This document shows positions 3,001 to 24,000 of a stretch of 64,000 bases of DNA, piece after piece. Both the position numbers and the translations under genes were made by a program. The notes beneath the pieces are model-generated. The model had not been told where the DNA came from. It ran no database searches and worked only from the letters and a program-made list of their open reading frames with translations. The stretch comes from an uncultured bacterium. Its GTDB lineage: Bacteria > Omnitrophota > Omnitrophia > Omnitrophales > Aquincolibacteriaceae. The stretch spans positions 18,734 through 82,733 of the forward strand of contig CAYSSX010000007.1 of the NCBI GenBank assembly GCA_964434115.1, in the 5' to 3' direction. How positions within the stretch are numbered: position 1 is the first letter of the stretch; each line of letters starts with the position of its first letter.

Positions 3001-6000
3001 CCAAGGCGATTGAAAACGCTGTCCGCTTGATGCAGGACATTAATGATGACGGCCAGATCAATGAAGCGGATATCAATATGATCCGTGACATGGCCAGCAT
3101 TTCACTTTTCCGCACGATTCCTCCGGGCGACTTAAACCGTGACGGCCTTACCGGAGATGTGGACGCTGAAATTGTACGTAACTTTCTGGACACCCTTTAC
3201 CGCGGCCTGAATGTGAGCGCTCAGGAACAAGCGCTTGCCGACATCAACCAGGATGGAGTCGTCAATTATGTTGACATCAACCTTCTCCTGAAAGCGAACG
3301 GATATTACCTGAAGAGCGAATTGACGGGGGACGGTTTTGTGAATCTTTTTGACCGCCTCAAGCTGGAAGGCTTCCTCCAGGCGCTTTACTCGGATGAGCT
3401 GATCACGCAGGAAGTCCTGAACCGGGCGGACCTTACGGGGCCTGATCAGAACGCGGATGGCGTGGGTGATAAAGACGGTAAGGTCCTTCAGGCGGACGAA
3501 GACCTCTTCATGAAGACCCTGCTTTATTACAAAGATGTCACCGATGACGGCAAGGTGGATGAAAAAGACCTGGCCATGATCAAAACCGCGCAAGAGCTCC
3601 TTGCTAAAGCCGACGGGATTCTTCCGAATCTGACTCAGATGAGCGGTATGGAAGTCTACCGCGCGCTCAAAGCGCTGGGCGATTTGGCTTACCGCGATCG
3701 CACCAAGCGCCTTGTCATTCAGTCCGTTCACGAGCAGAACTTTGACCAGAACACGAACGGGTGGGTACCTGACAATGTCGGCGCATGGAGCCGGGTGGCC
3801 GGTGAAATGGCGCAGACGGAATTCCGTGAGCAGCGCAGCACCACTTATTTTGAGGACGTCATTGAAGACGTTCAGATCAATGTGAAATTCAAATTCGATG
3901 GCCTTTACTGGAACGGCCAGCAGGGTGAAGGTATCGGCGGTTTGACCCTTCGCGAGGACGTCCAGACGGGAGATGCATACGAACTTCTTCTGGATGCCGC
4001 GCATTCTGCGATTTATCTCCGCAAGCGTGTCAACGGTATTTACAGCATCCTGGCCACGTCGGCAGTCAATTTCAGCGCTACCGACATGGATCAGATTACG
4101 GTCCGTTTGGTCAATGACCAGATCAGCGTCATTTTTAACGGCAACAAGCCTTTATTTACCGTTAAGGACGGCAGTTTTGAACGCGGCAATTTCGGGCTCT
4201 TTACGGAACCCGACAGTAAAGCGCGTTTTGACGACCTGAAAATTGAAACAGTCAATCTTGTGGAGTTGGAACCCGCCCTTGGGGTTCTGGAGCCTCTCAG
4301 CGTGAATGATTTCTCATCCGGCAATGCTTCGGAATGGATCCGTTCTCAGGATGGCGGTCAGTGGCTCGTGGAAGATGGAGCGCTGAAGCAGAAAAATTAC
4401 AGCGGCAATGAATATGAAATCTGGCATCAGCAGAATAATATTCAGGATTTTGTCTTTACCGCGGACCTTGCAATCCAGGGTCCCCCGAAAGCGCCCGAAG
4501 AAGAGACCTATGGCTTTGGCGGCGAGGGGGGGATGGGGTATGGAGGCGGATTGGGCGGTGGTATGGGCGGTGGAGGTTATGGAGGCGGCATGGGAGGAGG
4601 CGGTTATGGAGGCGGTGAAGGCGGTATGGGCGGTGGAGAAACGCCGACTCGCCGCGCCGGCATTATCTTCGCCAAAGAGAATGACAATAACTACTATCAG
4701 TTGGCCATTAATCCTGACGGCGGAAAAATGGAACTCTTCCTTGTCCGCGACGGCCAGACGACCCGCTTGGGGTATGGGATTATTCCTGTCCAGACAGATG
4801 AGCTGCCTTACCGGGTTGAAATCCGGCGCACAGGCGGACTTATCCGGATCCTTATCAACAGTGTAGAGCTGATCCGTACCCAGGATTTTAACCTCAGCCA
4901 GGGCAGTTTCGGTATTTACACCGAACCCAAGAGCCTGATGTCGATCGACAATATGAATTTCAGGAAAATGACGGCCATTCCCGACATCCAGCGCGATCTT
5001 ACGCTTACGAAAGATTTGAACGCCGATGGTCTTGTGAATGGTTCGGATTATGGGATTCTTGCTGATCTTAACAGCGTGACGTCAGCCGACTACAACAAAG
5101 ACAACATCCTTGATGATAAAGATGCCCAGCTTTTTGTGATTCTGGCCAACGGCCAGGCGGATGTTAACAAAGACGGGCTCGTGAATCAGATGGATAGGAC
5201 AGACCTGGCGGATGCTTATAACGGGCATGTGGACATTGACCAGGACGGGCTGGTTAACCAGAAGGATCTTGACCGTCTTAAGCTGATTCGGGCCCGCGTT
5301 TCGGATTGGGGCGGCAATCAACTGACCCTTGCGCTTTTTAGAAAGGCCAATATCAACAACGACGCCACGGGGGCCGTCAATCAGGAAGACATCTTCTCCT
5401 TGAAACTTGCGATCAGCCAGTACACCGAACTGGCCACCCTGGGCTTCCGGTGGACGGAATACCGCGCCATGACCCCGGCACAGAAAACAGAAGAAGTCAG
5501 AGTCTTTAATGAAGCTCATAAGAAGAGCTACTTTGTGGCACAGATTGACCTTATCGATTACATCTACGGCCGCGGCGATATGGACAGCAACGGCATTTCA
5601 AACGACCTCGACATCGCGATTATCCAGCAGGTCATTGATAAAACGCATACGGCTATCGACATTGAAAAGCTTGCGAATGCGGATCTGAACCGTGATGGCA
5701 AGTTCAGCCTCGAGGATTTGACTCTTTACTTCGACATCCTTCCTTATTATGTCGATGTCAACGGAGACAGTGTTGTCAATCACCTGGATTTTGTGGCTGT
5801 CCGGGAATCCCTGTTCCGTAAATACACGGCGGACCTGAATGGTGACGGTGCCGTCAATGAATTGGATATCGATTACCTCCACCAGCATATCCTTGGTCTT
5901 CAATCGATTGAAATGAATGGCAGCAAGGTTAAGGACCGCAGCAGTAATGTTACGCTCTCGGGCAATGAAGCCGTTGCCACGACGGATGCCTGGGTGGAGT

Positions 6001-9000
6001 ATCAGGTCGGCATCACAACGACAGGTAATTACGATGTGGGGCTGGAAGTAATCAATCATGAGAAGCTGGAACTGCCGCCGAATTATACGTATCAGTTCAA
6101 GGTCTTTGTGGATGGGACCGAAGTGGGCATCTTCAATGTTCTAGCTTCCGCGCAGGACGCGAAAAGAGGGGCGCTCAATCTTAACCTGAATCCTGGTAAT
6201 CATGTGATCCGTTTTGAGTGGATCAATGACAAAGTCAATGGACAGGACCGCTTTGAGACGGGCATCAGAATCCGTAAAATGTTCGTCAATACGGTCTATG
6301 ACCGCAACCAAAACGGTCAGGTCGACGCCGAAGATGTCAACTCGATTGAAAATACGATTCAGCTTGAAGTCGCGATTAAAGCTGCAGATCTAAACCATGA
6401 CGGCCTTGTCAATGATCTGGACCTTGCGAAATTCGACCAGACCCCCGTGGATCTTCAAGGCAATGCGCTTCTTAACATCCCGAACGACCGGAATCTCCTG
6501 CTGGAGTTTATCCGCCTTGAGAATGTCTGGCGCGCATCGGATGTTGACAAAAACGGCAAGCTTAATTCTAAAGATGCCAACCTCATTGATAATGCGTTGA
6601 GCATCATGAAAGATATTTCTGTGGAGACGTTCAAGGAAATTCTCCGCTACAAAGAACAGCAGAACAATTTCTATATCAATGATGTCTTCCGGCCTCAGCG
6701 CTACAATGAACCCAGCGACCGCGTGATCAATTTCGGGCTCGATTTTAACAATGTGAAAATCAAGATCGGGGATAAGTGGAGCGAAGCTGACCAGAATGAT
6801 GCGGAAAATAAAAAAGAAGACGCAACGGTTGTTCATATCGACGAACTCAAAAACCTGGGTGACGTGACGGTTATTATTGCGGCCCGGGCCCTAGACCTCG
6901 ATGCCGATCAAATCATCAAAGGGCAGGCGGAGAGAAAAATCGGCGCGCAGGGTTTTGGGTTTGATGATTACAAAGCTGTATCCAAGGTCATCGAACAGAC
7001 TCAAAACCGCGATTTCTATCTTCTGACTACGGCAGCTGACCTTGAAATGACGCCTGAGCTTCTGAAGCTTTTAGATACGAACAAGGACGGCATTTTTGAT
7101 ATTCGTGATCTTCCGGAAGGCATTGATCATAGAACCTTTGAACTTTTTGATGTGGATCGCAGCGGTAATCTCAGCATGGTGGACCGCGATCTTCTCGGAC
7201 GTTATGATGACAAAACAGGCGAATACATCGGCGTTCTCGGCGATGATAAAGTCACCGGCGCTTATTTCTTCCTGAACCGTATCCCTGAAGCCATCCGCCG
7301 TTTGTCGGATGTCAATGATGACGGACTCATTGACACGACCGATGTCGATATGCTGACGCGCGCGATGGGGCTTTTCCTCGGCGATAAGGACGGCGACGGC
7401 CTTACGGATGCGGACGAACTGGCCATGGGTCTTGACGTGGACGTCGACGGTGACGGCCTCAAAGGTGCTTTGGATCCAGACTCCGATAATGACGGGTTTT
7501 CGGACGGCGAAGAAATTGCCCGCGGTTTCAAAGCCAACGACGCCACAAGCAAGCCTCTCGCGGTCCTGGCGGACAGCGATGGCGACGGTATTCCGGATCT
7601 CAGCGATCCAAGCGCCTTTAAAGCGGACACCGACAGCGACGGTTTCTCAGACGGATGGGAAAAGGATCACGGCACCAACCCACTGGATAAAAACAGCAAA
7701 CCTGTCAACATTGTGACGCAACCGGATTCCGACGGTGACGGAATTCTTGACAGCGCGGAAACGGCACTTGGAACCAGCTCTGATAATCCGGATACCGACG
7801 GCGATGGATTTTCCGACAAGTGGGAAAAAGATCATAACACCAACCCGAAAGACGCCGAGTCTCATTCCGCACCCACGGCAACGGATAAGGACGGCGACGG
7901 GATCCTGGATGATGAAGAAGCGGCCCTGAAAACGGATCCTGAAAAAGCGGATTCAGACACCGACGGTTTCAGCGATAAAGAAGAACAGACAGCCGGGACT
8001 AACCCCTTGAGCGCAGTTTCCCGTCCTCAGCCGAAGGCTCTTGATACGGACGGTGATTCGGTTCCGGATGCCCTTGAAAGCGAATGGGGAACGGACAAGA
8101 CAAAAGTAGATACTGACGGCGATGGTTTTTCCGATGCGGAAGAAATTGCCCGCGGATCCAGCCCGCTCTCCAATCTTTCCTTCCCGAAAAAGACTTATGC
8201 GGATACGGATGGCGACGGCATTGAAGATCTGATTGAAATGTCTTATCGTGCCGATTTTGTGGCGGACAACGCGATTGATCAGAAAGACGTGGATCTTCTT
8301 AGGCAGAAAATCGCTGTTGCCGCGACCCTTACGCCGGCACAGATTGCTCCCTATGATCTTAATGGCGACCATGCCCTTAACGCGGTGGATCTGGACATTT
8401 TGAATGACACGATTACGGTTATGGCCGGTAACCCGCTTTCTAAAGTCATGAACACAGATCCCGCCAAGGCCGATTCCGACGGGGATGGGTTCAGCGATTG
8501 GGAAGAATTGAGCCGTTTCACGGATCCGGTTAACCAGCAGTCTTTCCCGGAAGTTTACAAAGCCGACCTTGACCACAACGATATCGTCGATGCCACCGAC
8601 CTTCAGATTTTGGACCGTGTGACGCGCATGCTGATGGGCGGGGACATCACAGGGGACGGCAAGCAGGATCAGAAAGATCTTGATGCCCTTGAAGCCTTGG
8701 GCGGATCCCAGATTGTTGAACTGGATGCGGCGCAGCGCGTGGATTCCAAAAATTACACGGTGACCGGGAGCACGCTTTACGCGACGCGCTCCAAAGATGA
8801 CGGCAATTTCGAAAATTTTATGCAGTACCGCGTGCAGACCTACGGCGGAAAATACACGATCGGTCTGGATGTCCGCAGCATGGATGCGATTTCACTCCCG
8901 GAAAACGGCTTTTATGAATTCGATGTCGTGGTCGACGGCCAGATGCGCGGACGCCTGCAGATCCGGGCCAGCAATATGCAGTACAACATGGAAACCATCC

Positions 9001-12000
9001 TTCTTGATCTTCAGGCGGGCGCTCATGACATTGTCTTCAAGTGGGTCAACAGCACACCGTACAAACGTGATTACGGCCGCCGCGACTGGAAGTATGACGA
9101 GAATAACAGCCGGGATATTTTCCCGTCCGTGCAGGTCAAGGGCATGGTGCTTCAGCGTGACGACTACAACGAAGCCTACGATTTTAACCACGATAACGTC
9201 ATCAATGACCAGGACGTACAGATCCTCCGCTCAACGATGCGCGATTCGGGTTACTACAAGCTTTCGGATGTGAACCAGGACGGTAAAGTCGACCAAACGG
9301 ACTATGACCTTTTCATGGCTTCTCCGGAAAGAAGCAATCTTGTCGCAACTCAGAAAATCAATCTTACGGGCAAGGATTACCTGATTCACTACAGCTCCTT
9401 CAACGGGCTTTATACCTTTGAAGACACGGCGGGCAACCTGATCCGCAGTGAACAGATCGCCCTTTATGGAAAAAGAAATTTCATTACCCTGGAAAATCAG
9501 CGCTATTTGATTCTTGATCCCAACCCGGCAACGGGTGTGGTCCGGGTCACGAAAGACTTGGATGCGGATCTTAATAAAGACGGGGCTATTGATGTCCTGG
9601 ACGTCGCGATCATGCAGAACGCGGCGTATTTGCCGCGCGAAAAGAAGGAAGGCGCTGATTTTATTTCCCGCACAGGTTCCTGGACCTTGGACGGAACCGA
9701 TGTTGTCAGTACATCGGGCGGCTCGCTGGATTACCGGTTCAATGTTCATACTGATGGAAACTATCAAGTGGGTATCCGCGCTACAAACGCGGCGGGCGTC
9801 AGCGAGGGCTATGAATTTGTCATCAACGAGTATGTGGATGGAGAGTTCCGTCAGACGATCCGCATGGACGGCGGCGCTGTGGGTAAGGATTACGGAGATT
9901 ACAAAAACCTGTCCATGGAACAGCAGCGCCCGGTGGAGACAGGGACCGGAGACACGGTACTCAATGATCCTGACACGGGACGCCCCTACCTTGGCCTTCT
10001 GCTCGACAAAGATGGAAAAGTCCGCGGTCTGAAACGCATTTACACGGACGTTGACGGCAAGATTACCCGCGTGGATGAGTTCAGCCTAGCACTTCCGCGG
10101 GATGCCAGCTCGAGTATTCATGATTTCTGGAAGACAGACTCGGATGTTCCTTATATGACAGGAGCGTCCATCAGCAAGCGTACTTATTATGAGAACGGCA
10201 AACCTCAGGTCGTCGCGATGATGAATCCTCAGGGCAGCGTGGGCCGGCTTGCCGTTATGACCTACGATGCCGGTGGTAACGTCACGCGTCAGGATCAGTA
10301 CAACTTCGCTGAAGGCAAGGTTCTTTATGAGGATTATGCGACGTATTGGGACAAAGAGCGCCAGCGTATTGTTCCCCGTGACGCGAGTTTCTCCGGCCGT
10401 TTCTTCTATCAAGCCGGCAAGCCTTTTGTGGCGGTTGAGCTGAATGCTGAAGGCAAAGTCAGCGGCATTATTTCCTTTGCAACGGATGCGGCCGGCAAAG
10501 TTCAGTCCTTGGACCGTTACACCTACGCGAGCGGTAAAGACCTCTTTGATAACCTTGATGCCTACTGGCAGGCTGGCCAGCCGAAGTATGATGCCGTGCT
10601 TTCGAGCCGTGTCTTTTTTGACGGCGTAAACCCGCTGGGTTCGGTGGAGCTGAACAGCGCGGGCAAAGTGACCCGTCTTTACGCTTACAAAATGGATGCC
10701 AATGGCGCGATCCAGTATCAGGACCGTTTCCTTTTCAATGCCGGTAAGGAACCCGCCTTGACCGCGTCCTTTGCCACCTATTGGGATGCGGCGGCCGGCA
10801 AACCGGTTTCAACCGAGCAGAAGCAGACAGGCCGCACATTCTTCCAGGGCGGTAAGCCTCTTGTGGATGTCCGCGTTGACGCGGACAAGAAGGCCATTGG
10901 ATTTACCGTTCTTGCCATGGATGCCAGCGGCACGATCTATTCCAGCGACCGCTACAGCCTTTATGCACCTTCAACCTTGACGGGTGAACTGAAAGATTTC
11001 TGGGATGATGTTCGCCACGTTCCGGCGCAGGCTTCGACCCAGCGTACGGGCCGGTCGTTTTACCAAAACGGTGTTCCGTGGATTGATCTGTCGATTGACC
11101 CGCAAGGATATGTTCAATCCATGAACCGTTACCGGACGGATGCCTCCGGGCACATGATGGATTCTTACCGCTACGGCTTCTGGAACCCGCAGGATCTGAC
11201 TGAGAATTACTATGACTACTGGAATGGAGAATTCGGCCAGCCCGTTTCTCCAGATGCTTTTACGGGCGGCCGCGTGATCTATGACGCGGATGGAAAAGTG
11301 ATTTCCCAGGAAGTTTATTCCAATCTGGACCTCCTTTCAGGAACACGGAACGTCACTTTTGAATGGGTGAATCCCGAGTATGGACGCGGAAAGCTCAAGG
11401 TTGAGGAAGCCTTCTACCGCTCCACCGACCTTCGCGCAGACTTTAATAAAGACGGATTTGTCACGGATGAAGACGCGGCCATATTCCGGAAGCAGAGCGC
11501 GATGTCCGGACACATTGACCCGATCACGCTTCAGGGCCAGAACTTTTACATTGTTCACAACTACGATGGCACCTTTGTGGTGACGGATGGCGCGCGTACC
11601 TTTAAGAGTGATGCGTCAGGCCGTTTTGTGGAAGTGGAAATCAACAGCGTTAAAATCAAGTACCTTGTTCAACTGGACCCGGAAGACACGGAAAAGAAAC
11701 GCCGGCAGCTGGTGCAGAACATTGTTTCCGATGTGGACAAGGACGGTTACATCAGCCGTAAGGACCTTGAGCTGATGCGTACGATTATTGCCGATCCGTA
11801 CCTCCAGATTGATTCGGTTCCGAAGGAATCCTGGGAAATGGGCAAGGCCTATCACTTTGATATCCAGCCGCAGGATGAACTCGGGCTTGGCGGGGATTAC
11901 ACGGTTGCTCTCAGTTATGTCTATCCGCAGAACCCGGGCGTCGGCTACAAATCCGAGTACCAGGTTTATGTGGACGGCTCGCTTGTTCAGCTTGTGACCT

Positions 12001-15000
12001 TTGACCACACCGCGGGCGTGGAGCAGCGCAAAGGCATTGACCTTAAACTCGAAGCGGGCCGCCACCGGATTGTGATCGCAGGCCCTGACGGCGACCTAAA
12101 GAGCGTTTACGCGTACTACTCCTGGGGCGACCTGAATAAAGATTTCAAGATTGATTCCCAGGACTTTGATCAATTCATCACGGGTTTCAGCAGCACGGCG
12201 ATTGTATTCCCGATGGCTTCCTATCAGTTCCCGGGAGAACCTCAGCCCAAGCGCCTCTTTGCGATCGATAACTTTGATGGATCCTTCACGATTTCTGACG
12301 GTGCGCGTTTCTGGCGCTCAAACGTTGAAGGTAATCTGGTTTTCATTGAAGATGCCAACGGCAAAAAGCAGGACTTTATCCTTTCGATCAACCCGGCAAC
12401 CCGTGAAGGCCGCTTGATTGAGCGCTTGCCGGAAGATTTGACTTACGACGGTATTACGGACGCCGCGGACATTGCCAAGATGAATTCCTATCTTGACCGC
12501 TATGACGTCAACCGGCTTGGAACGGATTTCACTTCGAAAACAGACAAAGTTTTTTATGCCGCTGACAAAACGTCGCTCAGGACTAAAGAAAATGGAAGCG
12601 TATCTTATACGTTCAAAGTCGACCAGCAGGGGATTTACAACTTCGGAGCTGTCCTTAAAGACATTGGTCTGTCAGGAATACCTGCGGACTACAAATACAA
12701 ATTCAATGTGAAAGTGAACGGCCAGGATAAAGGCGTATTCGAACTTCCCACAAGCCTGAACAACCGTCTTTCCGCCCAGATGCAACTGACGCTCGAAGCG
12801 GGAACTTATGAAATTCAACTGGAATGGAACAACGCGGCGGCCTCCCTGACCAAGGGTGCCCTGGAGTTCCAGCAGTTCTTCCTCCGTGACGCCAAGATCC
12901 CGGATGTTGCGGACATGAACAAGGATGCCGTCGTCGATATCCGAGACCTGGCATCCCTGATTCAGGAATCGCCGGTTTCCCAGCAGCGTACGCTCCGGGT
13001 GAACGGCCATGATTACCATGTAATGACCACGCAGCGGGAACCAAAAATTTATTCCTTCTTCGACCCGGCCATTAAAACCTGGGTCACAACAGTCCCTGGT
13101 GATAAAGAAGTCAGCCTTGAAGGGAAGAAATATGTGATCAATGACACCGCCAGCGGCCTTGAGCTTCTCGAGTGGAGCCCGACGGATGCTACGCGTGACG
13201 GCTTAACGAATTTTGCGGACCGCGAGGCTTACCGTAATGAAATTGCAAAGTATTCGAGTGTTAAGAAGGCCACTCAGTATGACACCAAAGAAGCCGAATT
13301 TTGGGGGACCGATCCCTGGACAACTCCATCTGGCGATACCATGGTGACGCAGAAAGAGCGCGCCATTACCTATCTTTTTGATGCTCCGCAGGCTGGCCTT
13401 TACGACCTTGGACTTTCTTTCCGTTCCCAGATTGCGCTTCCCACGGGTTACCGCTATCACTTTGATGTTCTCGTGGATGGCGTGAAAAAAGGACAGATCC
13501 GTGTGGAGGGCAGCCAAACCTATGTTCTCGGGGATATTGAAGCCCAGTTGACTCAGGGAAGCCACAAAATCACTTTTGACTGGGTCAATCTCAAGGATTG
13601 GGTTGACGCCAATGGCGTTCAGCTTGCGGGAAGCCTGGAAATTCAGAGCGCCTACATCCGGGCCGCGGATCAAAATCAGAAAATGGACCAGAACGCGGAC
13701 GGCATTGTGAATGCCGCTGATTTTATGGCCTGGCAGGACCTTCGCCCGAATCCGACCAATACGCAGACCTTCGTGGTGAAGACAAAGACTTATCGCGTGC
13801 TGGATTACGCGGAAACAGGCGTCCCAATGTCCTTCCGCGATGATGCCAACAAGATCACGCTGAGCGATGCCGCGAACACTTTTGTCCGCTTGGACGGGAA
13901 CGATTACCGCATTGACCGTCAGGTCAATGGAACCATTGTCCTGACCGAAATCCGCCCGGGTGATCTGGACAAAAATGGAATCGTTGATGATGCTGACTTT
14001 GCTCTTCTTGCTACGGAGGGCCAAAAGTATTCACAGGCCTTGCGCGGCATCGACTATGCGGATAAGTCTTCCTACCTGCGCCTGGATACGGATGGACGTT
14101 CCTTGGTGACCGCTGAAAATGCGAATGTGACTTACAATTTTGATATTCCTGCCGACGGCTGGTATGAGTTCGGTGTCGATGCCCTTGCCGCGGGAGGTAC
14201 TTTTGATGCCCAGCATTTCTTTAACTTAGAAATCGCTGCGGGCGGCAGCCGGGTAGGGGATATCCGCCTTCCGACGAGCGCTTTTCCGCAGGGGCAAAAA
14301 ACCATCAAGGTCTATCTCACAAAGGGAACGCGCTCCATCAATGTGAAATGGAATAATGACCAGCAGGCTCCGTCCGGCAACCTTAAGCTGAAAAGTGTTT
14401 TTCTCCGCGCCGTGAGTCAAGATATCCGGGCAGATCTTAATAATGACGGTTCCGTTAATATAGATGATACGACTGAATGGCTGAGGCAGAATCCGACGGA
14501 AAAAATCATGAACCGCATTGTGGTCGGAAGCAAAGTCTATCAGACGGTCCGTGAAGCTTCCGGAAAGCTTTTGTTCACGTCTGACTTTTCAACTTGGTAC
14601 ACGAGCAATCCAGCCGGAACAATGGTCACTCTCGAACAGGGCCTCCCAGGAGAAAAGAATTACCTTATCTTTAAAGACCCCGACACCGGACTCCTCCAGC
14701 TGCGCGAAATGATGAGCGGTGATTACAATTTAGACGGACAGGTCAGCAAGACCGATCTGGATGGCCTTCGTGAAGCGGCCGAATTGCAGTCGCAGCGCTT
14801 TATGGCCCGTGATTACTATGAGAAGAACGACGGGTGGGTGATTTCTGATGCCGGAACCAAACTTAAAACGGATAAAGATGCAAGCCACTCGGTGATCGAT
14901 TACCAGTTTGATGTGCAGACCGACGGCACTTATGACATCGGGCTTTTGATGCGCAACGCGGCCGGTGACATGCCCTGGTACCGCTTCTTCATGGACATCA

Positions 15001-18000
15001 GCATTTCTAACGGCGGGGGCAGCTATTCGATCCGTGTTCCGTCTTCCGATAAATTCCAGGAAGCCTCAATCAAGGCGAACCTTAAAGCCGGACGCTACCA
15101 TGTCACCTTCACTTGGAAAAACGATGGCGATTCTAACACAGCACTTTCGGGAGATTTTACACAAGGTCCTGCGACTCTTGAAATTGACGGCATGGTGATT
15201 CGGAACAGTTCGATGGGGAAAAGCGGTGACCTGACTAAAGACGGGGTGACCGACGTGAAAGATGTTGTCCGCTGGATGACGGACAACCCTGACTCTGCCA
15301 ATGAGCAGACCCTGACTTACAACGGGTCTACCTATTATGTGGAGAAACTCGCGGATGGATCTTATTCCGTATTTGAACAAGCCAGCAAGCAGTTCTTTCA
15401 GAGTGTCCCCGGTAAAAATCTCGTCGATGTCTGGAACGTCAACAAGAATGGGAACGTAAAGCTTGTGATTCTGGAGGATGCGGATGGCAAACGCACTCTG
15501 GTCAACTATGTTCCTGAAGATGTGAATCTTGACGGCGCTGTTAACCAAGATGACTGGAATTATGAACTGGAGCAGCTTTCCTATTACGCTAAAACTTATG
15601 ACGGCCGCGACTACTTCAGCCGAGGGAGCGATAAATGGATTCAGAAGCAGGATGGGACCGTGGTAAACACGGCCTCTCCCGGCGACCCCATAACATACCG
15701 CTTTGATATTGAAAAAACGGGCTATTATGATTTGAACCTGCTGGCGCGTAATCTGTCCGCTGGAAGCGCGAATCAGTATTCTCGCATGTATCTTGAAATT
15801 GCGGGGTATGGGCAGATCCGGCTTGACGCCCGTGATGTTAATTACTCCAACGGGACGCTTAAGATTTTCCTCGAAAAGGGAACCCGGGACATTACGATCC
15901 GCTGGAAAGAAATTACGGAAGTCGGAGCGGCAGGGTTTGATCTCAAAAAAGTTTCTCTCACGGAAAGCCGGATTGATTACCAGGCTGATCTTGATGCCAA
16001 CGGCTTCCTGGATTCCCGTGATCTAGTCGCGCTTCAGGCCTTGATGCCTGAAACCACGAATTACGGCGCCGTGAATGTCAGCGGCACCAAGTACCTGGTC
16101 AACAAGCTTGCGGACGGCCGTTACCGTTTCGCGAGCGCGGGGGCTGGAATCACGAGCGCGGTTTGGGTGGACAGTGACGCCCAGGGCAAACTCATTAAAA
16201 TCAGCGGCACGGATTACATCATCAATAAATCCGCCGAAGGTTTGGTTTTCCTTGTGGAACGTCTGCCGCAGGACATGAACCTTGACGGCCTCGTGAATGA
16301 TCAGGATTTTGCGTTTCTGATCGATCAGAGCCAGCTCTCCCAGCAGACTTACCGCGCGATTGACTATTCCACACGCGATGAAAGTGTGACCTGGAAACTT
16401 GGCGCGGATTACAAGACGTTTGTTTCCACCGCCGATGACGCGAGCCTCGGTTTCTCATTCAATGCCAAGGAAGAAGGCTGGTATGACCTTGGTCTTATGC
16501 TGAAGGACGCCAGTGGAACTTCTCTTTCCGCGGATTACCGCTTTAACCTCCGCGTGATCGTGGATGGCGTGCATGTGTCCAATATCCGGGAAGTGCTGAG
16601 CAGTGTGACCTGGAAAGACGGCCGCGCTTCGGTTTACCTCAAGAAGGGGACGCACACCCTCGCGTTTATGTGGGACAACGATGAGGAAGTTGGCGACGCG
16701 GCAGGCATTGAAATCGGCGCGCTCAGCGTCCGGAACCGTCAGGTCAACAGTTATTCGGACGTGAACGGAGACGGCACGCTCAATCAGCTCGATTTTGACA
16801 AGCTGGCTGAAACCCTTCCGGATTCACGCGATATTCAAAAATTCGCCCTGAAGGGCCAGAATTTCATGGTCGTCGCAAATCATGCGGACGGCACCTACAC
16901 CTTTATCCGCGGCGTTGAAACGATCCGTTCCGCTCCGGACAAAACGGTGGTGATCGACAACCTTCTTTATGACGTCATTGTGAACCAGGAAGGCCGCGTT
17001 ATTTTGGCCGAGCAGCTCCGCGGGGACGTGAACGGCGACACCAACACCAATTCCGCGGACACGAGCATTATCAAATCCGCCTGGGGAACGACCCCGGACC
17101 AGGTCAAGACCGGCGACCAGTACTACACGGCCAAGAATTTCACGGCCGGCTGGGGGACGGTTCAGGTCGGGCAGTATGACCAGTCCAAAAAGTACTACGT
17201 GGATTATCTTTTCCAGACCGCCCGTGAAGACAATTACGAACTGAATTTTGAATTGAAGACTTCCAATGACGCGGGCCAGCCGAAAACGACCTGGGCTGTT
17301 TACATTGATGACATGGGTAAAATCTTCAAGACCATTGAAGTGCCGACGAATAAAACCCAGTATGAAATCGCGCAGCTTTTCGCATCGCTTGATGATGGTT
17401 TCCACCGCATCCGTCTTGAACTCCTCAGTCATCGTGACAACCTGACCGCCGAGATCGGTAAAGTTTCTCTGGGATTCCCGGAGTTCGATTCCCGCGCGGA
17501 CCAGAACCGTGACAACGTGGTGGATGTGAGCGATCTTGTGCCGGTCCTTGAAGACGCCTCGGATTCCTCTTTTGTGGAAGTGCTGAAGCTCAGCTCCGTG
17601 CAGTATTACTTCTATGAAAATCAAAACGGCAAATTGTTCCTGACCCGGGATGGTCAAACCGGCTTTGAGAGCAACGCCGCCCAGTCCGTGATTAACATCA
17701 GCGGAACGGATTACTGGATCAATAAGGACGCGCAGGGCAATCATGAACTGGTGAAGATTATTGCCGGGGACCTGAATAAGGATGCCGTGGTCGATGCCGC
17801 GGACCGCACCCTCATTCAAGACCAGGCTGGGGCCGGACGCCGTGAACCTGTGGCCACCGACCCGACAACCTTTACGGAAAAGAACCGCTTCGCCAAGAAC
17901 GGGGCGATTATGGAAGCCTTCCATACGACCAGCGACGGGACAGACCCGATCTACCTTGAATACCAGATGACCTTGGGCGGCAGCATTTATGAAATCAGTC

Positions 18001-21000
18001 TGAATGCCAAGGCTCCCACGGCGCTGGACCTTCCCCGTGCCGATTACGTTTATATGTTTGACCTGTTTGTGGATGACATGACCACGCCGGTGGGAACGAT
18101 CGCCATCCCCGCAAACAAGACAGCCGCACAGACGGACAAACTCCGGGTGGATTTGACGGCCCTTGCCTCGCAGGCCGGCCGCAAGCTTCGGATCCGCTGG
18201 ACAAACCCGGAAGCCAATTGGTCTCAGGCCCAGCAGAAGACCGGCCTGGAAATCAGCGGTTTGATGGTCAAAGACCTGGCTTATGACAGCCGCATGGATA
18301 TCAACGGCGACAAGATTGTGAACAACGCTGATCTGACGGCTTTTGACGCCATCTCGATCCGCACCGCTGTCAAGAGCCAGAAAGTGCCTTCGGATTGGGC
18401 GGACGCCAATGCTCACCGCGGCCTGATGGTTTCAACGCCTCTTCTTCCCGTGGCGCGCGATTCCCTGATGGATGCCGGGGATCTTCTTGCTTCGAACGGG
18501 TGGGCGATGCAGAACGGCCGTTATGCTCAGTCTTCAGGGGCCGCGGTCAAGGCCATTTCCCTGATTAAGGACGGCATTACGGTTCCGGAGAATTTTGATC
18601 TGACGGGCACTCTGCAGTTTGACGGCAACTCCAACCAGGGCCGCGCGGCGGGTATCCTGCTTCGTTATCGTGATGATCAAAACTACGCCTGGATTTCGAT
18701 CGATGGCCCGAACCGCACCATGACTGTCTATGAAGTTGTGGCCGGACAGCAGAAAGCCGTGGCTTCCCAGCAGCTCTCAAGCGATGTCCTGTTCGGTCAT
18801 GATTATGCCTGGAAGGTCGAAGCCCGTGAAAACTTCTACCACATCACGTTCAACGGACAGAAAGTGTTTGAATACCTCAAGCTGACCAAGACGCCGAATA
18901 CCGGAAAAGTCGGCATTTTGAGCGACCGTTCACTGGCCAACTTCTCAAGCCTGGAACTCAAGACCTACACGAACCGCCGCGTTGAGGTTTATGACGTCGC
19001 GAAATCCGGCAATACCTTCAACTTTACGCATTTCACCGACGGCAGCAAGAACGCGTCCAGCGACCCTGTTAAGAATACCGTGGTTCTGAACGGCGTGACT
19101 TATAAACTTCAGGACAACGCCCCGGGCGTGAACCAGCTTTCCCTGATCCGCCAGCCGGTGACGAGCCTTATGGATACTGCGGTCTATCTCCGCGCGGAAA
19201 ATGACTTCTACACCGTGACCAAGGACGGAACGGGTGTTTACCACTTTACGTCTTCTGTGGAAGCCGAAAGAACCAGCACCCTGGTTGATAACAAACCTCA
19301 GGTGACTCTGCATGTCGGCGGCGGCGCCAAACAAAAGACTTATCGTATTGTGGATGCGGGCAACGGACAAGTTCAGCTTGTGGAAATCCCGAAAGCGGCC
19401 GCGGCCGTGTCGTCCGATATCTGGATTGGGGCGGGGGACAAGATGTACATGGTGGAAAACCGCGGCGGAAATGTCTACCGTTTCACTTTGATGGGAACGG
19501 GAACCTTCGTGGACAGCAATGGCACCACAGGCCTTGTGAACCTCAACAGCACGGCTTACCAGGTCAAGGTTACGGGCACCGGCGCGGTGCAGCTGGTCCA
19601 GCCGCGCACGGCCGGCGTTTTACAGGCCAAACAGACGCTTACCCATAACGGTAAAGTGTATGAAGTCACCTACGATAACCTGACCGGAAAATACAGCTTC
19701 CGTGATGTTGTGCTGGGCACCATCCTTCAGAGTAATGCCTTTGAAGGCACGGTCACCCTGAACTCCCAGGTTTATGACATCGTGGTTATGGACCCGGCGC
19801 GCAACATCCGCCTTCTGCAGAAAGAGACTCAGGGCCATGAGGTTTACAGCCACACGGTGCGCTTCGGAAATGATTTTTATGACGTTGTGAAGGAAGGCAA
19901 TGAATATCGCTTTAAGGACGTCCGCCATATTCTCGCGGACCTTGTGACCGTGGGACAGAAAGTCCTGGTGGGTGCCGTCCGCTACAGCATTTATGAAGAA
20001 GCCGCGACCGGTAAGGTCCGCGCGGTCCAGGTCAGCGATGTTTCGGCCGGCAACACGGAACAGCTCGTGTTTGTCGAAGGCACGGGCTACTACTACACCG
20101 TGGTCAGCAACAAAGTGAATATGAAGAAGTACGGCACTTCGACCACCTACGTGGAAGACGTGAATGGCGTGATCAATCTCGGCGGCATTTCCAACTTTAA
20201 AGTGCTCCGTGATGTCCCGGCCGCGGGGGAAGTCGAATTTGCGAAAATCCTGCTGGCCAGCCAAAGCGTGGACCTTGGCTACATGATCCGCGTGGACGGC
20301 ATTGCTTTTAAAGTGACTGCGAACGACGGACCCAAGCAGGTTGTGTTCCAGGCGCTTGAAGGCCCCGTGGACTCGGTGACCGCTTCTTACACCGACCTGG
20401 AAGTCACGATCAAGGGCAACAAATACAAACTGGAATTCCCCGATGCGTCCAATCACGCCAAAGTAAAACTGACGGAAGTGCCGCGCGCCGTGGCACCCGC
20501 GAACGCGGACGTGAAAACCATGTGGGTGGACAATAAATTTTATGACGTAACCGCCGTGGAGCCGGCGAACCCTAACACGGAATACCGCTTTACCAATGTC
20601 ATCAACCCGGTGGAGACCTTTGTCACGGTCAACCGCCAGCTTGTAGGCCAGATCGGCGGCACGACCTTTATTGTCGAAAAGGATCCTTCCAGCGGTGCGA
20701 TTTCGATTCTACGCCCGAGAGTGAAGAGTGATTTCCGCTCCACCGCGCATTCAATAGCGATTTATGATGAAGTGCTGAAGGCCAACCGTATTTGGGAATT
20801 CACCCGATCTGGAAGCCAGTTCACGTTTACCTCATCGGGTGTAGGGAATGTAACGAGCGATGCGGCGGGCAAGCGCGTGACCTTCGGCAGCCAGACGTAT
20901 GACATTCAGGTCATCAATGACGGCCAGCTCCAGATCCTTCTGTCCGCGGTGATTGACGAAGCCCAGAACCTTTATGACCAGATGATTGAAATTGCAGGCA

Positions 21001-24000
21001 CGACCTATGGCGTGAAAGCCGAATTGGTCAACACCGTGCCGACCGGCTATTACCTTCTGTTTAACGCGGCGGGCCAGCAGGTCAATAAATCCATTCGTGA
21101 TCCGGAACAGGAATTCGGTATTGTCTTCGACATCGGCGGCCAGATTTATGACGTACGCATCGACGAGCGCCGTGACCTTGTGGTTTCCCGGCGGCTTGGG
21201 CGCAGTGCGGTCGTTGACACCCATACTGTCTATCTGTACGACGGACTGGCCGCCTCCAGCCTGATCGAAGGAACGGACGCTATCATCAAGGTTGATGATT
21301 TGAATTACCGTGCGGTTTTCGACAACGTTAACAAAAAGGTGACCCTGCAGGGACTTGCCGGGGCCACGACCCAGGGACCGTTTAATTTCGGCGATGTGGA
21401 AATCACGGTTGCCGGAAAGCGTTACTTCCTCGAACTGGGCGCCAGTGTCTCAAGCGTGGTCGCAGACGGCCTCTCCACGGTTCTTATCGGCAGCCGTACT
21501 TACCGCGTGATTGCCGATGACACGGCCCAGCAGCTGAAGCTTCAGACGATGGATGGCGCTGTTACCTTTGGTCCTTTTGCCTATGGAGACTCAGAAATCG
21601 CCTTAGGCGGAGAGCGTTATTTCATTAAGTATGGAGCGGCCCATAATCAGATCACGCTAACTCAGAAAAAAGTAACCCTTCGTTCCGGAAAGAAATACAC
21701 GGTTACGGATCTGGGTTCGGGCAATCTTAAGTTTACGGAAGAAACCACCAACGCCGTGTTTACGAGCATTCCGAGCAAGCGCATGGTGGTGATCTACAAC
21801 CGCGTTTACCGCATGGATTTCACAAAGATCCCCGTCCGGCTTACGGAAGCAGAAAAGATCGATGTGACTGGCGACGGATTTGTGAACAAGGAAGACGCGG
21901 ATGTGATTCAGGACATGATGGCGGAACAGACCTACGTGGACCGCTCTGACTTGAACAAAGACGGAAAGGTCGACCGGGCGGATTACCGGCTTTACGCCGA
22001 AAACAAAGACGCCCTCCGGGACGTTAACGATGACAATACGATCAATTACCTGGACCGCCAGGAACTGGTCAATGCCGCCCAGTATGCGCGTAACACGTAT
22101 TACCAAAACAAGGCTATTGAGTACGATTCGATCGCAAATCCGTTCTACACCACAGGTCAGCAGCCGGCGTATCTTCAGAAGTGGCTGAGTGAACATCTTC
22201 CGTCCTATCAGACAGGAGATTTCCAGAATCGCCTTTTGAATGGAACCATCGAAGTCGAAGATGTGGCGGACTTTGAAATCGCCTACAAGATGCTCGATTA
22301 CCTGACGGATGTGAACGATGACGGCAAGGTGGACAGCAATGATTTGAATTACATGAAACGCCTTCTGGATCTTTTCAAGCTTCTTGAAAAGTACAAGGAC
22401 AATACCGGATCCCTTCTCCCGCAGGCACTGGTTGAAGACTTTGACACGAACCACGCAGATGTCAACGGTGACGGCTTTGTGGATGCCAAAGACAAGCAGA
22501 TCCTGGTCGATAGCTACAACAACTACCTGAAATATGATTTTGTCGGAAACGATAAACTCGTCAATAGCGCGGACGTCAAGTATGTGGAAGATATCTATGA
22601 GCTGATTTTCCCGGTGAGCGGTGTTGTGGAAGGCTGGCGTGCCGGCAATGGGTATGACAAGGCCCAGGGTTTTACGGGCCAGCAGTCCAGCAGCGACGGT
22701 ATTACGACGGCGAGCACGGCCAATTCCTGGGTCGAATACAACTACACGGTGGACCCGAGCGGTAATGTTTTTGCCGGGATTTCCGTCCGCTCGGTCCATG
22801 ACCGCGTGATTCCCGACGGCTTTCAGTATGACATTGATGTCTATCTGGATGGCGTCTACAAAGGCAACATTAAGATTGATGCGCTGGATGCCCTTCGTTT
22901 TGAAGAAAAACGTCTCCAAATTGAAGATGTGGAGAAGGGGCAGCATGCCATCAAGTTTGTTTTCAAGAACATCTCATCCGATGTCCCTGTGGAAGTGGGC
23001 CGCGCTTTCCTGAATCGCAATGGCATCAATTTGTCGGCGATGGATACCAATGCAGACGGCAAGATCTGGGTGGATGACATGGACGAGCTGAAGAATTTGA
23101 TCCAGCAGTATGCCAACGGCGACGGCAACATCACTATGGAAGATCACGACCTGATTCCTTTGGATCAGACGGCCAAACGCAAGCAGGTCATGTACATCCT
23201 TCAGCACTTTAACTTTTCCGATGACGGCGGCACGATCAAGATCAATCAGCAGGATGTGGACGTGATCGCGGACGCGGCGTACTGGTTCATCAATGAAAAG
23301 ATGCTGACACCGTCCTCTGACCCTCGCCAGGCATACCGCTACACCTCCTGGTCCGGGGCCCAAAGCCCTTACGGCAGCGTGGAGAGTTTTGCCTGGGACT
23401 ACAACGGTGATAAACGCGTGGATATTGACGACCGCAAGCTGGTGCTGGACGCGGCCCGGGTTAAGGACATCACCGGCGACGGACATGTGAATGCCCAGGA
23501 TCTTGCTTACCTCCGCCGGCTGCGAGATTTTCTTGCCGCGAACATACATCCGGACGAAATCCGCCGTTCAAACATTACCAAGGACAACACCTTTACTTTC
23601 TGGAGCGGAAGCGGCAAGGAGCAGGTGGCCGGTGATTTTGAAGGCCTTAACCTGAACGGCCTGGACTTTGAAGGAGCGATTGACCAGGTTAAGGGCGAAG
23701 TTACACTGGAAGAAAGCCACGAAGAAAGCCAGACCGCACTTGGCGACACGATCCGTTTCAACGGTAAATTCTATTCCGTCCGGCAGGATGCGGCCACCGG
23801 CCAGTACGTGCTTTGGGATGGGGCCGAGACCTTTATTACCGATGGCCCCAACCACGTCACAACAATAGATCTCAAGGATTACCGAGTTTCCCAGGATCCT
23901 TACACAGGTTCCTACACATTGATCCGCGACGATGTCGCCGTGAGCGCGCCTGTTGCTGATTTTTCTGTGATCCTCGACGGTGATACTTATCAAGTAACGC

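Follow-up and report, generated by a model that had tools for sequence, protein, structure and literature searches.

Nine diverged tandem copies of a composite calcium-loop and CBM-like module form a putative ladder in a giant Omnitrophota-type protein

The closest described counterpart of the repeat array analysed here is the "dockerin/CBM35 ladder" of CAILPI010000004_73, a Dockerin-type giant protein (West-Roberts et al. 2023, bioRxiv 10.1101/2023.11.21.568195). In a 2,500-aa subregion of that protein, CBM35-like barrels are flanked by dockerin-like helices and give rise to a ladder-like macrostructure (10.1101/2023.11.21.568195, sections 9-10, Fig. 6), and in the published models these helices pack within the molecule around the sandwich. 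Members of the class reach 30,000 aa or more in total and have a C-terminal transmembrane anchor and SecA-like domains, with DUF1080, ILEI and TSP3 as accessory domains and the discoidin domain F5_F8_type_C also mentioned; attachment and glycan processing have been proposed as their functions (10.1101/2023.11.21.568195).

The window, i.e. the whole 64,000-nt stretch of DNA that was analysed, consists of one reading frame of 21,332 codons that is open at both window ends, as seen in a six-frame stop scan. That a single giant ORF fills the window had been missed by the initial annotation. The encoded protein is Cys-poor and rich in D, G and T, and no transmembrane-like hydrophobic segment was found over its 21,332 codons in a Kyte-Doolittle scan (maximum 1.46, no scan window above 1.6). 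Pfam families in the ORF include Dockerin_1 (E 3e-53, 1.9e-61 and 9e-20 in successive ORF chunks), TSP3_bac (E 2.6e-36), 3keto-disac_hyd (DUF1080; PF06439, E 3e-12) and ILEI (PF15711, E 7e-14). F5_F8_type_C was absent from the window ORF at E<=1e-3, and no SecA domain was found within the window, which spans neither terminus of the protein. With its many repeats of the Dockerin/EF-hand and bacterial TSP3 types in a single, very long ORF, the protein is, judged by its domain content, a member of the already described Dockerin-type giant protein class of Omnitrophota. Its likeness to CAILPI010000004_73, as that protein is described in the preprint, comprises a subregion, roughly 2,300-2,500 aa long, that is built from repeating units, CBM35-like barrels, dockerin-like Ca-binding helices that are split around beta domains, the presence of Dockerin, TSP3, DUF1080 and ILEI, a long stretch without transmembrane segments, and a probable origin in Omnitrophota. 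The window protein may be CAILPI010000004_73 itself, its orthologue or its paralogue. The preprint does not mention the double hairpin of ~66 aa that is inserted between loop 1 and loop 2 of every unit, the nine-unit count, the 23% identity between units, or the unit-by-unit orthology between lineages.

Our preferred reading, which we consider probable, is that the array represents nine ancient and diverged tandem copies of a composite module of ~255 aa in an Omnitrophota-type giant protein, acting as a Ca2+-paired ladder or stalk. The nine units are arranged head-to-tail at residues 3808-6093 of the window ORF (nt 11424-18281), close to the 11330-18300 assigned by the initial annotation, and measure 690-798 nt each (Table 1). 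Every unit follows the same part order, beginning with an F-hand/dockerin-like, Ca-binding loop and its helix, which are followed by a double beta-hairpin of ~66 aa, a second Ca loop and helix, and a beta-sandwich of the CBM6/35/36 fold; the succession of sandwich ("module A"), Ca loop, two hairpins and Ca loop had thus been read correctly from the outset. In Unit 1, the Ca loops are located at aa 3813 and 3910 and the sandwich is shortened. The ~760-nt period originally claimed was confirmed by self-BLASTP, in which the offsets within the array gather at 1x to 8x of ~255 aa, and by leave-one-out profiles, where each unit, scored with a profile of the remaining eight, reached 70-170 bits vs at most 10 bits for 200 shuffles. 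A search with the unit profile also detected partial copies elsewhere in the same protein, including a detached tenth copy ~520 aa upstream of the array.

Table 1. Positions of the array units and related features in the window (nt, forward numbering) and in the window ORF (aa).
Feature	Position (nt)	Strand	Residues (aa)	Basis and remarks
Single stop-free ORF, fragment of giant protein	3..63998	+		Six-frame stop scan
Detached partial tenth unit copy	9255..9878	+	3085-3292	hmmsearch with unit profile, 103.6 bits; profile positions 2-204
Unit 1	11424..12113	+	3808-4037 (230 aa)	Unit alignment; leave-one-out 70.5 bits
Unit 2	12114..12896	+	4038-4298 (261 aa)	Leave-one-out 115.8 bits; orthologous to O1 of P0001
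Unit 3	12897..13670	+	4299-4556 (258 aa)	Leave-one-out 140.6 bits; orthologous to O2 (164 bits)
Unit 4	13671..14417	+	4557-4805 (249 aa)	Leave-one-out 161.6 bits; single-unit AlphaFold2 model
Unit 5	14418..15212	+	4806-5070 (265 aa)	Leave-one-out 145.7 bits; orthologous to O4 (164 bits)
Unit 6	15213..15971	+	5071-5323 (253 aa)	Leave-one-out 148.4 bits; orthologous to O5 (174 bits)
Unit 7	15972..16742	+	5324-5580 (257 aa)	Leave-one-out 170.1 bits; orthologous to O6 (137 bits)
Unit 8	16743..17483	+	5581-5827 (247 aa)	Leave-one-out 87.4 bits; orthologous to O7 (143 bits); Dockerin_1 34.2 bits
Unit 9	17484..18281	+	5828-6093 (266 aa)	Leave-one-out 108.1 bits; orthologous to O8 (119 bits)
Terminal 19th Ca loop and helix, DINGDKIVNNAD	18282..18371	+	6099	Loop table; closes the array after the ninth sandwich
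Two adjacent partial unit copies, far downstream in the same protein	47460..48710	+	15820-16041, 16046-16236	hmmsearch, 87.4 and 60.0 bits
Further partial unit copy	50025..50579	+	16675-16859	hmmsearch, 78.1 bits; profile positions 72-248

The units are heavily diverged, as had been proposed, with a mean pairwise amino-acid identity of 23.5% (range 18.6-30.4) and a mean codon-aligned nucleotide identity of 40% (range 35-45). No tandem repeats were found in the array DNA by TRF, and the only direct nucleotide repeats were motif-level matches of 18-48 nt, mostly over the Ca loops. At identical residues of two copies the same codon was used in 43.9% of cases vs 41.1% expected from codon usage, and the synonymous sites are therefore saturated. 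A recent tandem-repeat expansion was rejected, since the high nucleotide identity between copies that it implies is absent from the alignments, from the TRF result and from the codon comparison. The initial annotation had illustrated the divergence by different codings of the DLNKD motif. Different codons are indeed used inside the array, e.g. GACCTGAATAAAGAT (nt 12129) and GACCTGAATAAGGAT (nt 17769), but one of the three strings quoted does not occur in the window and the other two (nt 1149 and 1872) lie elsewhere in the window.

P0001, an orthologue of groundwater-metagenome origin, exhibits 33-41% identity to the window protein and is collinear with it along a stretch exceeding 9,000 aa. 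In this comparison, conservation is lowest in the array (33.5% identity vs 40-41% in the flanks), and the units of P0001 match Units 2-9 one to one, with 105-174 bits and 31-38% identity on the diagonal vs at most 90 bits off the diagonal. Moreover, aa 1988 of P0001 marks a Ca loop at a place equivalent to the terminal loop of our array. Since the units correspond one to one, the nine-unit array predates the split of the two lineages. Together with the saturated synonymous sites and the lack of nucleotide repeats, this supports ancient duplications, rather than slippage or misassembly, as the origin of the copies, as had been suggested at the start. By the same evidence, we give next to no credence to the notion that the array is an artefact, be it through recent expansion of a repeat, faulty assembly or periodicity in non-coding DNA. 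Nothing was found in favour of this notion; it is refuted by 64 kb without stops in one frame, by the ~40% nucleotide identity between units with nothing reported by TRF, and by the collinear orthologue encoded on an independent metagenome scaffold.

The homologues comprise 1,047 representative proteins at E<=1e-3, 36 of them at E<=1e-30. An exact 50-mer of the window does not occur in the collections searched. At least one full unit is carried by 19 of the best 150 homologues, in which unit spacing is 254 +/- 5.5 aa; those other than the orthologue hold just 1-3 full units each, and most of them are fragments. All homologues with an organism name (13/13) are Candidatus Omnitrophota/Omnitrophica MAG proteins, and as far as sequence searches go the unit is shown to be restricted to Omnitrophota among the named matches.

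A regular period in a giant protein brings to mind the A-band super-repeats of titin, composed of 7 and 11 Ig/Fn3 domains, which are the classic molecular-ruler proposal and whose period fits the 43-nm thick-filament repeat of a known partner lattice. Like titin, the array has a multi-domain super-repeat with a fixed domain order and diverged sequence in a giant protein, but the folds and the domain of life are not the same. It had been suggested initially that the array is under selection for length and periodicity, so that unit number and the ~255-aa period would themselves fix a stand-off distance or match a periodic partner. Such a ruler is favoured by the retention of unit count and order in an orthologue at ~34% identity, by the tight spacing in the homologues, and by the fact that conservation is highest in the Ca-loop elements, through which a rod would be stiffened. 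However, the period is fixed because all units are built from one set of folded parts (a double hairpin, a CBM-fold sandwich and a pair of loop-helices), and the unit lengths span 230-266 aa, a difference of 36 aa. Nor is the conserved count peculiar to the array, since the orthologue is collinear over its whole architecture of more than 9,000 aa. Units with a nucleotide identity of ~40% are unlikely to recombine unequally, so that selection is not required to keep their number stable. Fewer full units occur in other homologues, though the fragmentary nature of most of them should be kept in mind, and, unlike for titin, we know of no periodic partner. We thus did not retain the selection claim and regard a ruler of this kind as unlikely.

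Once a one-residue offset in the printed row for loop 2 of U8 is taken into account, all 19 loops of the array keep D1, N/D/T3, D/N5, D/N/S/T9 and D12 of the EF-hand/dockerin Ca loop, and D6, D17, D98 and D109 are invariant across the units. In the comparison with P0001, the loop-and-helix parts are the best conserved (identity 0.42-0.44), followed by the sandwich (0.35) and the hairpins (0.30). Pfam matches in the units include Dockerin_1 and EF-hand, and Dockerin_1 is the top family for most of them; its gathering cut-off of 22.9 bits is passed by two of the nine units (U1 with 23.9 and U8 with 34.2 bits), the others having 15-18 bits or no match. The residue pattern and the Pfam matches bear out the dockerin-like character first noticed and support dockerin/EF-hand-type Ca loops with predicted Ca2+ binding.

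Type I dockerins (PF00404) share with the array a Ca loop of 12 residues (D-x-N-x-D-G-x-V-D/N-x-x-D) and the helix after it, with ligand positions 1, 3, 5, 9 and 12 kept. The canonical dockerin, on the other hand, is one contiguous cohesin-binding module of ~60-70 aa in which two 22-aa segments lie few residues apart, whereas in the array the two halves are parted by an inserted hairpin domain or CBM-like sandwich and are not adjacent. The loops might recruit cohesin-bearing partners to a cellulosome-like scaffold, which would be in line with the prominence of Dockerin_1 in the units, above cut-off in two of them, and its abundance elsewhere in the protein. Successive loops are, however, 91-102 aa (hairpin insert) or 133-176 aa (sandwich insert) apart, so there is no canonical ~60-aa dockerin in the array, and no cohesin domain was found by Pfam across the 21,332 aa of the window ORF. 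As the models in the preprint furthermore show the helices packing intramolecularly around the sandwich (10.1101/2023.11.21.568195), we find a scaffold function very improbable.

The fold of the unit was modelled with AlphaFold2 for Unit 4 alone and for a two-sandwich construct with the sandwiches of Units 5 and 6, in both cases from shallow alignments of 7-9 rows. The Unit 4 model (pLDDT 82.3, pTM 0.52) has a helix at residues 15-24, seven beta strands in two hairpins at 31-93, a second helix at 107-121 and a beta-sandwich at 124-247, and its Foldseek matches are CBM6/CBM35 structures (E ~1e-6, target TM ~0.7). The array sandwiches are thus predicted to have the beta-jelly-roll fold of the CBM6/35/36 group, and the matches of a profile search against the PDB were 5x7o (E 8e-6) and 2vzp (E 0.012). 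At the sequence level they fall outside the Pfam family, the best CBM_35 score being 18.6 bits, in U1 only, at a cut-off of 28. They differ from CBM6, CBM35 and CBM36 modules in showing 12-16% sequence identity, below the Pfam gathering score, and in being flanked by F-hand helices instead of attached to an enzyme, and carbohydrate binding by them is putative.

The clear CBM6/35/36 fold and weak sequence relation to CBM35 could also mean that the array is a multivalent lectin, in which nine CBM35-like modules bind host or prey surface polysaccharide by avidity and the loops and hairpins are merely linkers. A W-x-N motif ahead of the last sandwich strand, present in six of the nine units, points in this direction, as do the attachment and glycan processing proposed for the protein class (10.1101/2023.11.21.568195). 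Against this, sandwich conservation between orthologues is no better than average, the sandwiches stay under the CBM_35 threshold, and the CBM fold is common in non-binding structural roles as well. High orthologue conservation went together with low paralogue conservation in just two columns, 95 and 99, both of which belong to the second Ca loop and not to the sandwich, and with no unit-specific conserved column there is no sign of conserved ligand sites in the sandwich. A purely lectin-like array is therefore a possible but doubtful explanation.

Returning to the ladder, we infer that the array segment is extracellular and that its most likely role is that of a Ca2+-stiffened stalk or adhesion segment, a spacer or stalk role being plausible. 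Each dockerin-like EF-hand pair consists of two halves parted by an inserted beta domain. Binding of Ca2+ would let the halves pair, in the manner of the helices described in the preprint, and clamp the neighbouring beta domains together, and the array would thereby become an elongated, semi-rigid ladder. Such a stalk may display its nine CBM-like sandwiches to surface polymers of a host or prey, possibly with glycan binding, and would keep the regions of the giant protein on either side of it at a distance from each other. The pTM of the two-sandwich model, a moderate 0.63 vs 0.52 for one unit, is consistent with some defined packing between domains.

A similar principle is known from giant RTX adhesins, whose extenders, e.g. 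the ~120 BIg repeats of Marinomonas primoryensis MpIBP, are rigidified by Ca2+ and thought to project functional domains off the cell. Repeats of the MpIBP type are single Ig-like domains of ~100 aa that are nearly identical at the DNA level. Like the MpIBP extender, the array would be a long tandem series of beta domains in a giant bacterial surface protein with Ca2+ sites at the domain junctions, but the unit of the array is a composite of different folds, ~255 aa long, and its copies share 23% identity.

Finally, the ladder might be a true Ca2+-dependent ruler, a rigid rod whose nine units are kept across deeply diverged Omnitrophota lineages for a defined stand-off between a tiny predator or epibiont and the envelope of its host, or else a Ca2+-switchable extensible element. 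We judge this unlikely. In line with it, the count is conserved in the one available orthologue, and no element of the array is better conserved than the Ca loops.

The array consists of nine units (U1-U9) arranged head-to-tail over aa 3808-6093 (nt 11424-18281), with lengths, in order, of 230, 261, 258, 249, 265, 253, 257, 247 and 266 aa (690-798 nt), in agreement with the initial annotation, in which a supermodule recurring about 9 times every 740-795 nt had been noted. The periodicity exceeds chance. When tiles of the region were compared with each other by BLASTP, offsets were observed solely at multiples of ~255 aa (1x-8x), bearing out the proposed period at the protein level. A leave-one-out test gave the same picture: when the profile was built from the remaining eight, every unit scored 70-170 bits, and shuffled sequences at most 10 bits.

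The order of parts within a unit was obtained from the unit alignment and an AlphaFold2 model of U4 (pLDDT 82.3). Each unit begins with a Ca loop, D-x-N-x-D-G-x-V-D/N-x-x-D, and its helix, continues with ~66 aa in which beta strands build two G-x-x-Y-x-[VI] hairpins and with a second Ca loop and helix, and ends with a beta-sandwich of ~130 aa. This order had been described accurately beforehand, and the core called module A at that time is the CBM-like sandwich. The EF-hand/dockerin ligand positions 1, 3, 5, 9 and 12 are kept in all loops (19/19), and four Asp residues are invariant across the units. Dockerin_1 is the top Pfam family for most units, albeit only U1 and U8 pass its cut-off. The sandwich adopts the CBM6/35/36 fold (Foldseek E 1e-6 to 1e-8; target TM ~0.7, against isolated CBM35 and CBM6 modules), and a profile of the nine sandwiches matches 5x7o in its CBM35 region (E 8e-6) and the CBM35 2vzp (E 0.012), with the units scoring beneath the Pfam CBM_35 cut-off. 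For the hairpin mini-domain, a profile found no significant match among PDB sequences.

Over the entire ORF, Pfam detected numerous Dockerin_1 repeats, and neither cohesin nor enzyme domains. That the array is a scaffold onto which cohesins dock is unlikely, since the dockerin halves are nowhere adjacent in it and cohesin is absent from the ORF; a canonical cellulosome scaffoldin was rejected on the same Pfam result.

This architecture has already been described. The Dockerin-type giant proteins of Omnitrophota were defined by Dockerin/EF-hand and TSP3 repeats, DUF1080 and ILEI, and by a long N-terminal portion that lacks transmembrane segments (West-Roberts et al. 2023, 10.1101/2023.11.21.568195). 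In one of them, CAILPI010000004_73, CBM35-like barrels are reported to repeat over a 2,500-aa subregion, the helices that flank them coming together as a dockerin-like pair, and the result is a "ladder-like macrostructure" (10.1101/2023.11.21.568195). Our array matches that ladder, description against description, and is a feature of known kind that opens no new class. The details that are new are the double-hairpin insert, the exact map of nine units, the orthology at unit level and the pattern of conservation. Slightly beyond the preprint go the observations that each of the nine units has its own orthologue between lineages at ~34% identity, that conservation within the unit is highest at the Ca loops, and that the sandwiches lack conserved unit-specific sites. 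In predicted length the giant proteins of Omnitrophota rank with the longest in biology, and they are almost wholly uncharacterised; few stretches of them fold confidently in silico, the array being one.

The units are strongly diverged from each other, with a mean pairwise identity of 23.5% in protein and 40% in codon-aligned DNA. TRF reported no tandem nucleotide array, and a direct-repeat search returned just motif-level matches of 18-48 nt, chiefly at the Ca loops. Where two units share an identical residue they use the same codon in 43.9% of cases, vs 41.1% expected from the codon usage of the gene, and synonymous sites between units are saturated. The high nucleotide identity that recent slippage or an assembly artefact would predict was thus not found, and both are excluded by the empty TRF result, the 40% DNA identity and the saturation. 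The initial annotation had argued correctly from differing codons for conserved residues, but of its quoted examples two fall outside the region and the third is missing from the window.

A word-indexed protein search with units 4-5 as query gave zero matches at E<=1e-3. Relatives emerged only when 1.84 billion representatives were scanned exhaustively with a profile, which yielded 1,047 proteins at E<=1e-3, of which 36 reached E<=1e-30. Among the best 150 of the 1,047 matches, 19 contain at least one complete unit, and tandem units are spaced by 254 +/- 5.5 aa. The multi-unit alignment was built from non-overlapping segments. All matches with a named organism (13/13) are partial proteins from MAGs of Candidatus Omnitrophota. 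Pattern-based searches for related loci, in GTDB genomes and in JGI metagenomes, yielded none that tblastn confirmed. An exact 50-mer of the window had no match in the genome and metagenome contig collections.

The best match, P0001, is an orthologue located on a 55-kb groundwater-metagenome scaffold, L001 (ENA ERZ28564302, scaffold_1434), of which positions 1-27521 are collinear with aa 813-10036 of the window at 33-41% identity. Gene callers cut the orthologue into three "genes", and the breaks are runs of N only. Eight units are visible on the scaffold, and each has one partner among U2-U9, with 31-38% identity and diagonal scores of 105-174 bits (at most 90 bits off the diagonal); the position of U1 falls in the upstream collinear block. 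This pairing makes the nine duplications older than the split of the two lineages, with no concerted evolution of the units since then. Ancient and maintained duplications, as proposed initially, are supported by both the unit-level orthology at ~34% identity and the saturated synonymous sites. It had also been proposed that length and periodicity were kept under selection, the array being a "molecular ruler" or spacer-like architecture. The conserved count fits a ruler, but copies with only 40% DNA identity can keep a stable count without selection, and the period is explained as a by-product of the unit's domain content. Moreover, collinearity extends over the whole protein and identity is lowest in the array (33.5% vs 40-41% in the flanks), and we consider a ruler improbable.

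Between orthologous units, the Ca-loop helices exhibit the highest identity (0.42-0.44), followed by the sandwich (0.35, average) and the hairpins (0.30). When orthologue and paralogue conservation were compared over the whole unit, only two columns were conserved between orthologues but variable between paralogues, both in the second Ca loop, and no conserved unit-specific sites were found in the sandwich. A lectin array, in which the CBM-like sandwiches are multivalent binders, is compatible with the CBM6/35/36 fold, but no conserved binding sites are evident. A model with two sandwiches reached a pTM of 0.63 vs 0.52 for a single unit, compatible with a defined inter-domain packing once each helix gains its neighbour. 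We propose that the split F-hand pairs would bind Ca2+ extracellularly and, when bound, clamp successive beta domains together, giving an elongated, rather stiff stalk with CBM-like surfaces on display; we infer the localisation, the Ca2+ dependence, the pattern of pairing and any binding of sugar. The canonical two-segment dockerin split would here be reused as an intramolecular clamp around inserted beta domains. Giant RTX adhesins have Ca2+-stiffened extender regions, and the same principle is proposed here with different folds. The unit orthology, the Ca-loop conservation and the lack of conserved unit-specific sites in the sandwiches together point to Ca2+-dependent mechanics, rather than sugar specificity, as the experimental focus.

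Since the whole window is a single open frame (frame 3, + strand, stop-free over nt 3-63998, 21,332 codons, both ends open), the array belongs to a giant protein that the window covers in part, and ordinary genes are absent. The array is a minor portion of this gene, which is itself remarkable. Asp, Gly and Thr abound in its product, which contains only 14 Cys in the 64-kb window and has no hydrophobic stretch of membrane-helix type over the 21,332 codons. Apart from the weak DUF6593 match, the last ~3,600 aa of the window's frame are without annotation. Outside the array, aa 1-12000 contain ~80 more dockerin/EF-hand Ca loops, many of which form canonical, close pairs at a distance of 20-40 aa, whereas the pairs in the array are split. 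The minus strand exhibits many long ORFs (up to 662 stop-free codons, e.g. 16824-18416, 56775-58571 and 58920-60476), all sharing codon register with the sense frame. They arise because TTA, CTA and TCA sense codons are rare (141 in 21,332), and were rejected as genes, being shadow ORFs.

Domains and unit-related copies in the giant ORF
Feature	aa	nt	Strand	Basis
DUF1080 (PF06439) / 3-keto-disaccharide hydrolase-like		3741-4244	+	Pfam E 3e-12
Bacterial TSP3 repeat cluster (TSP3_bac)		~7300-7950	+	Pfam E 2.6e-36
Partial unit copy, detached	3085-3292	9255-9878	+	unit-profile match
19th Ca loop + helix, array end	6099		+	loop table
Partial unit copies	15820-16236	47460-48710	+	unit-profile match
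Partial unit copy	16675-16859	50025-50579	+	unit-profile match
ILEI		50769-51026	+	Pfam E 7e-14
Partial or detached copy		51117-51476	+	unit-profile match
DUF6593, weak match		59865-60071	+	Pfam E 7e-7
Stand-alone CBM-like sandwiches (n=5)	475-603, 1936-2096, 2876-3018, 7517-7659, 9613-9754		+	unit-profile match

The giant protein is a mosaic in which three building blocks recur. The ~66-aa double-hairpin mini-domain occurs by itself at 57 sites over aa 3116-20206 (nt ~9348-60620), frequently as series of copies ~60-80 aa from one another (for example at aa 7915-8791), and it may be the counterpart of the "antiparallel beta-helix with external paired beta sheets" shown in the preprint for a Dockerin-type protein.
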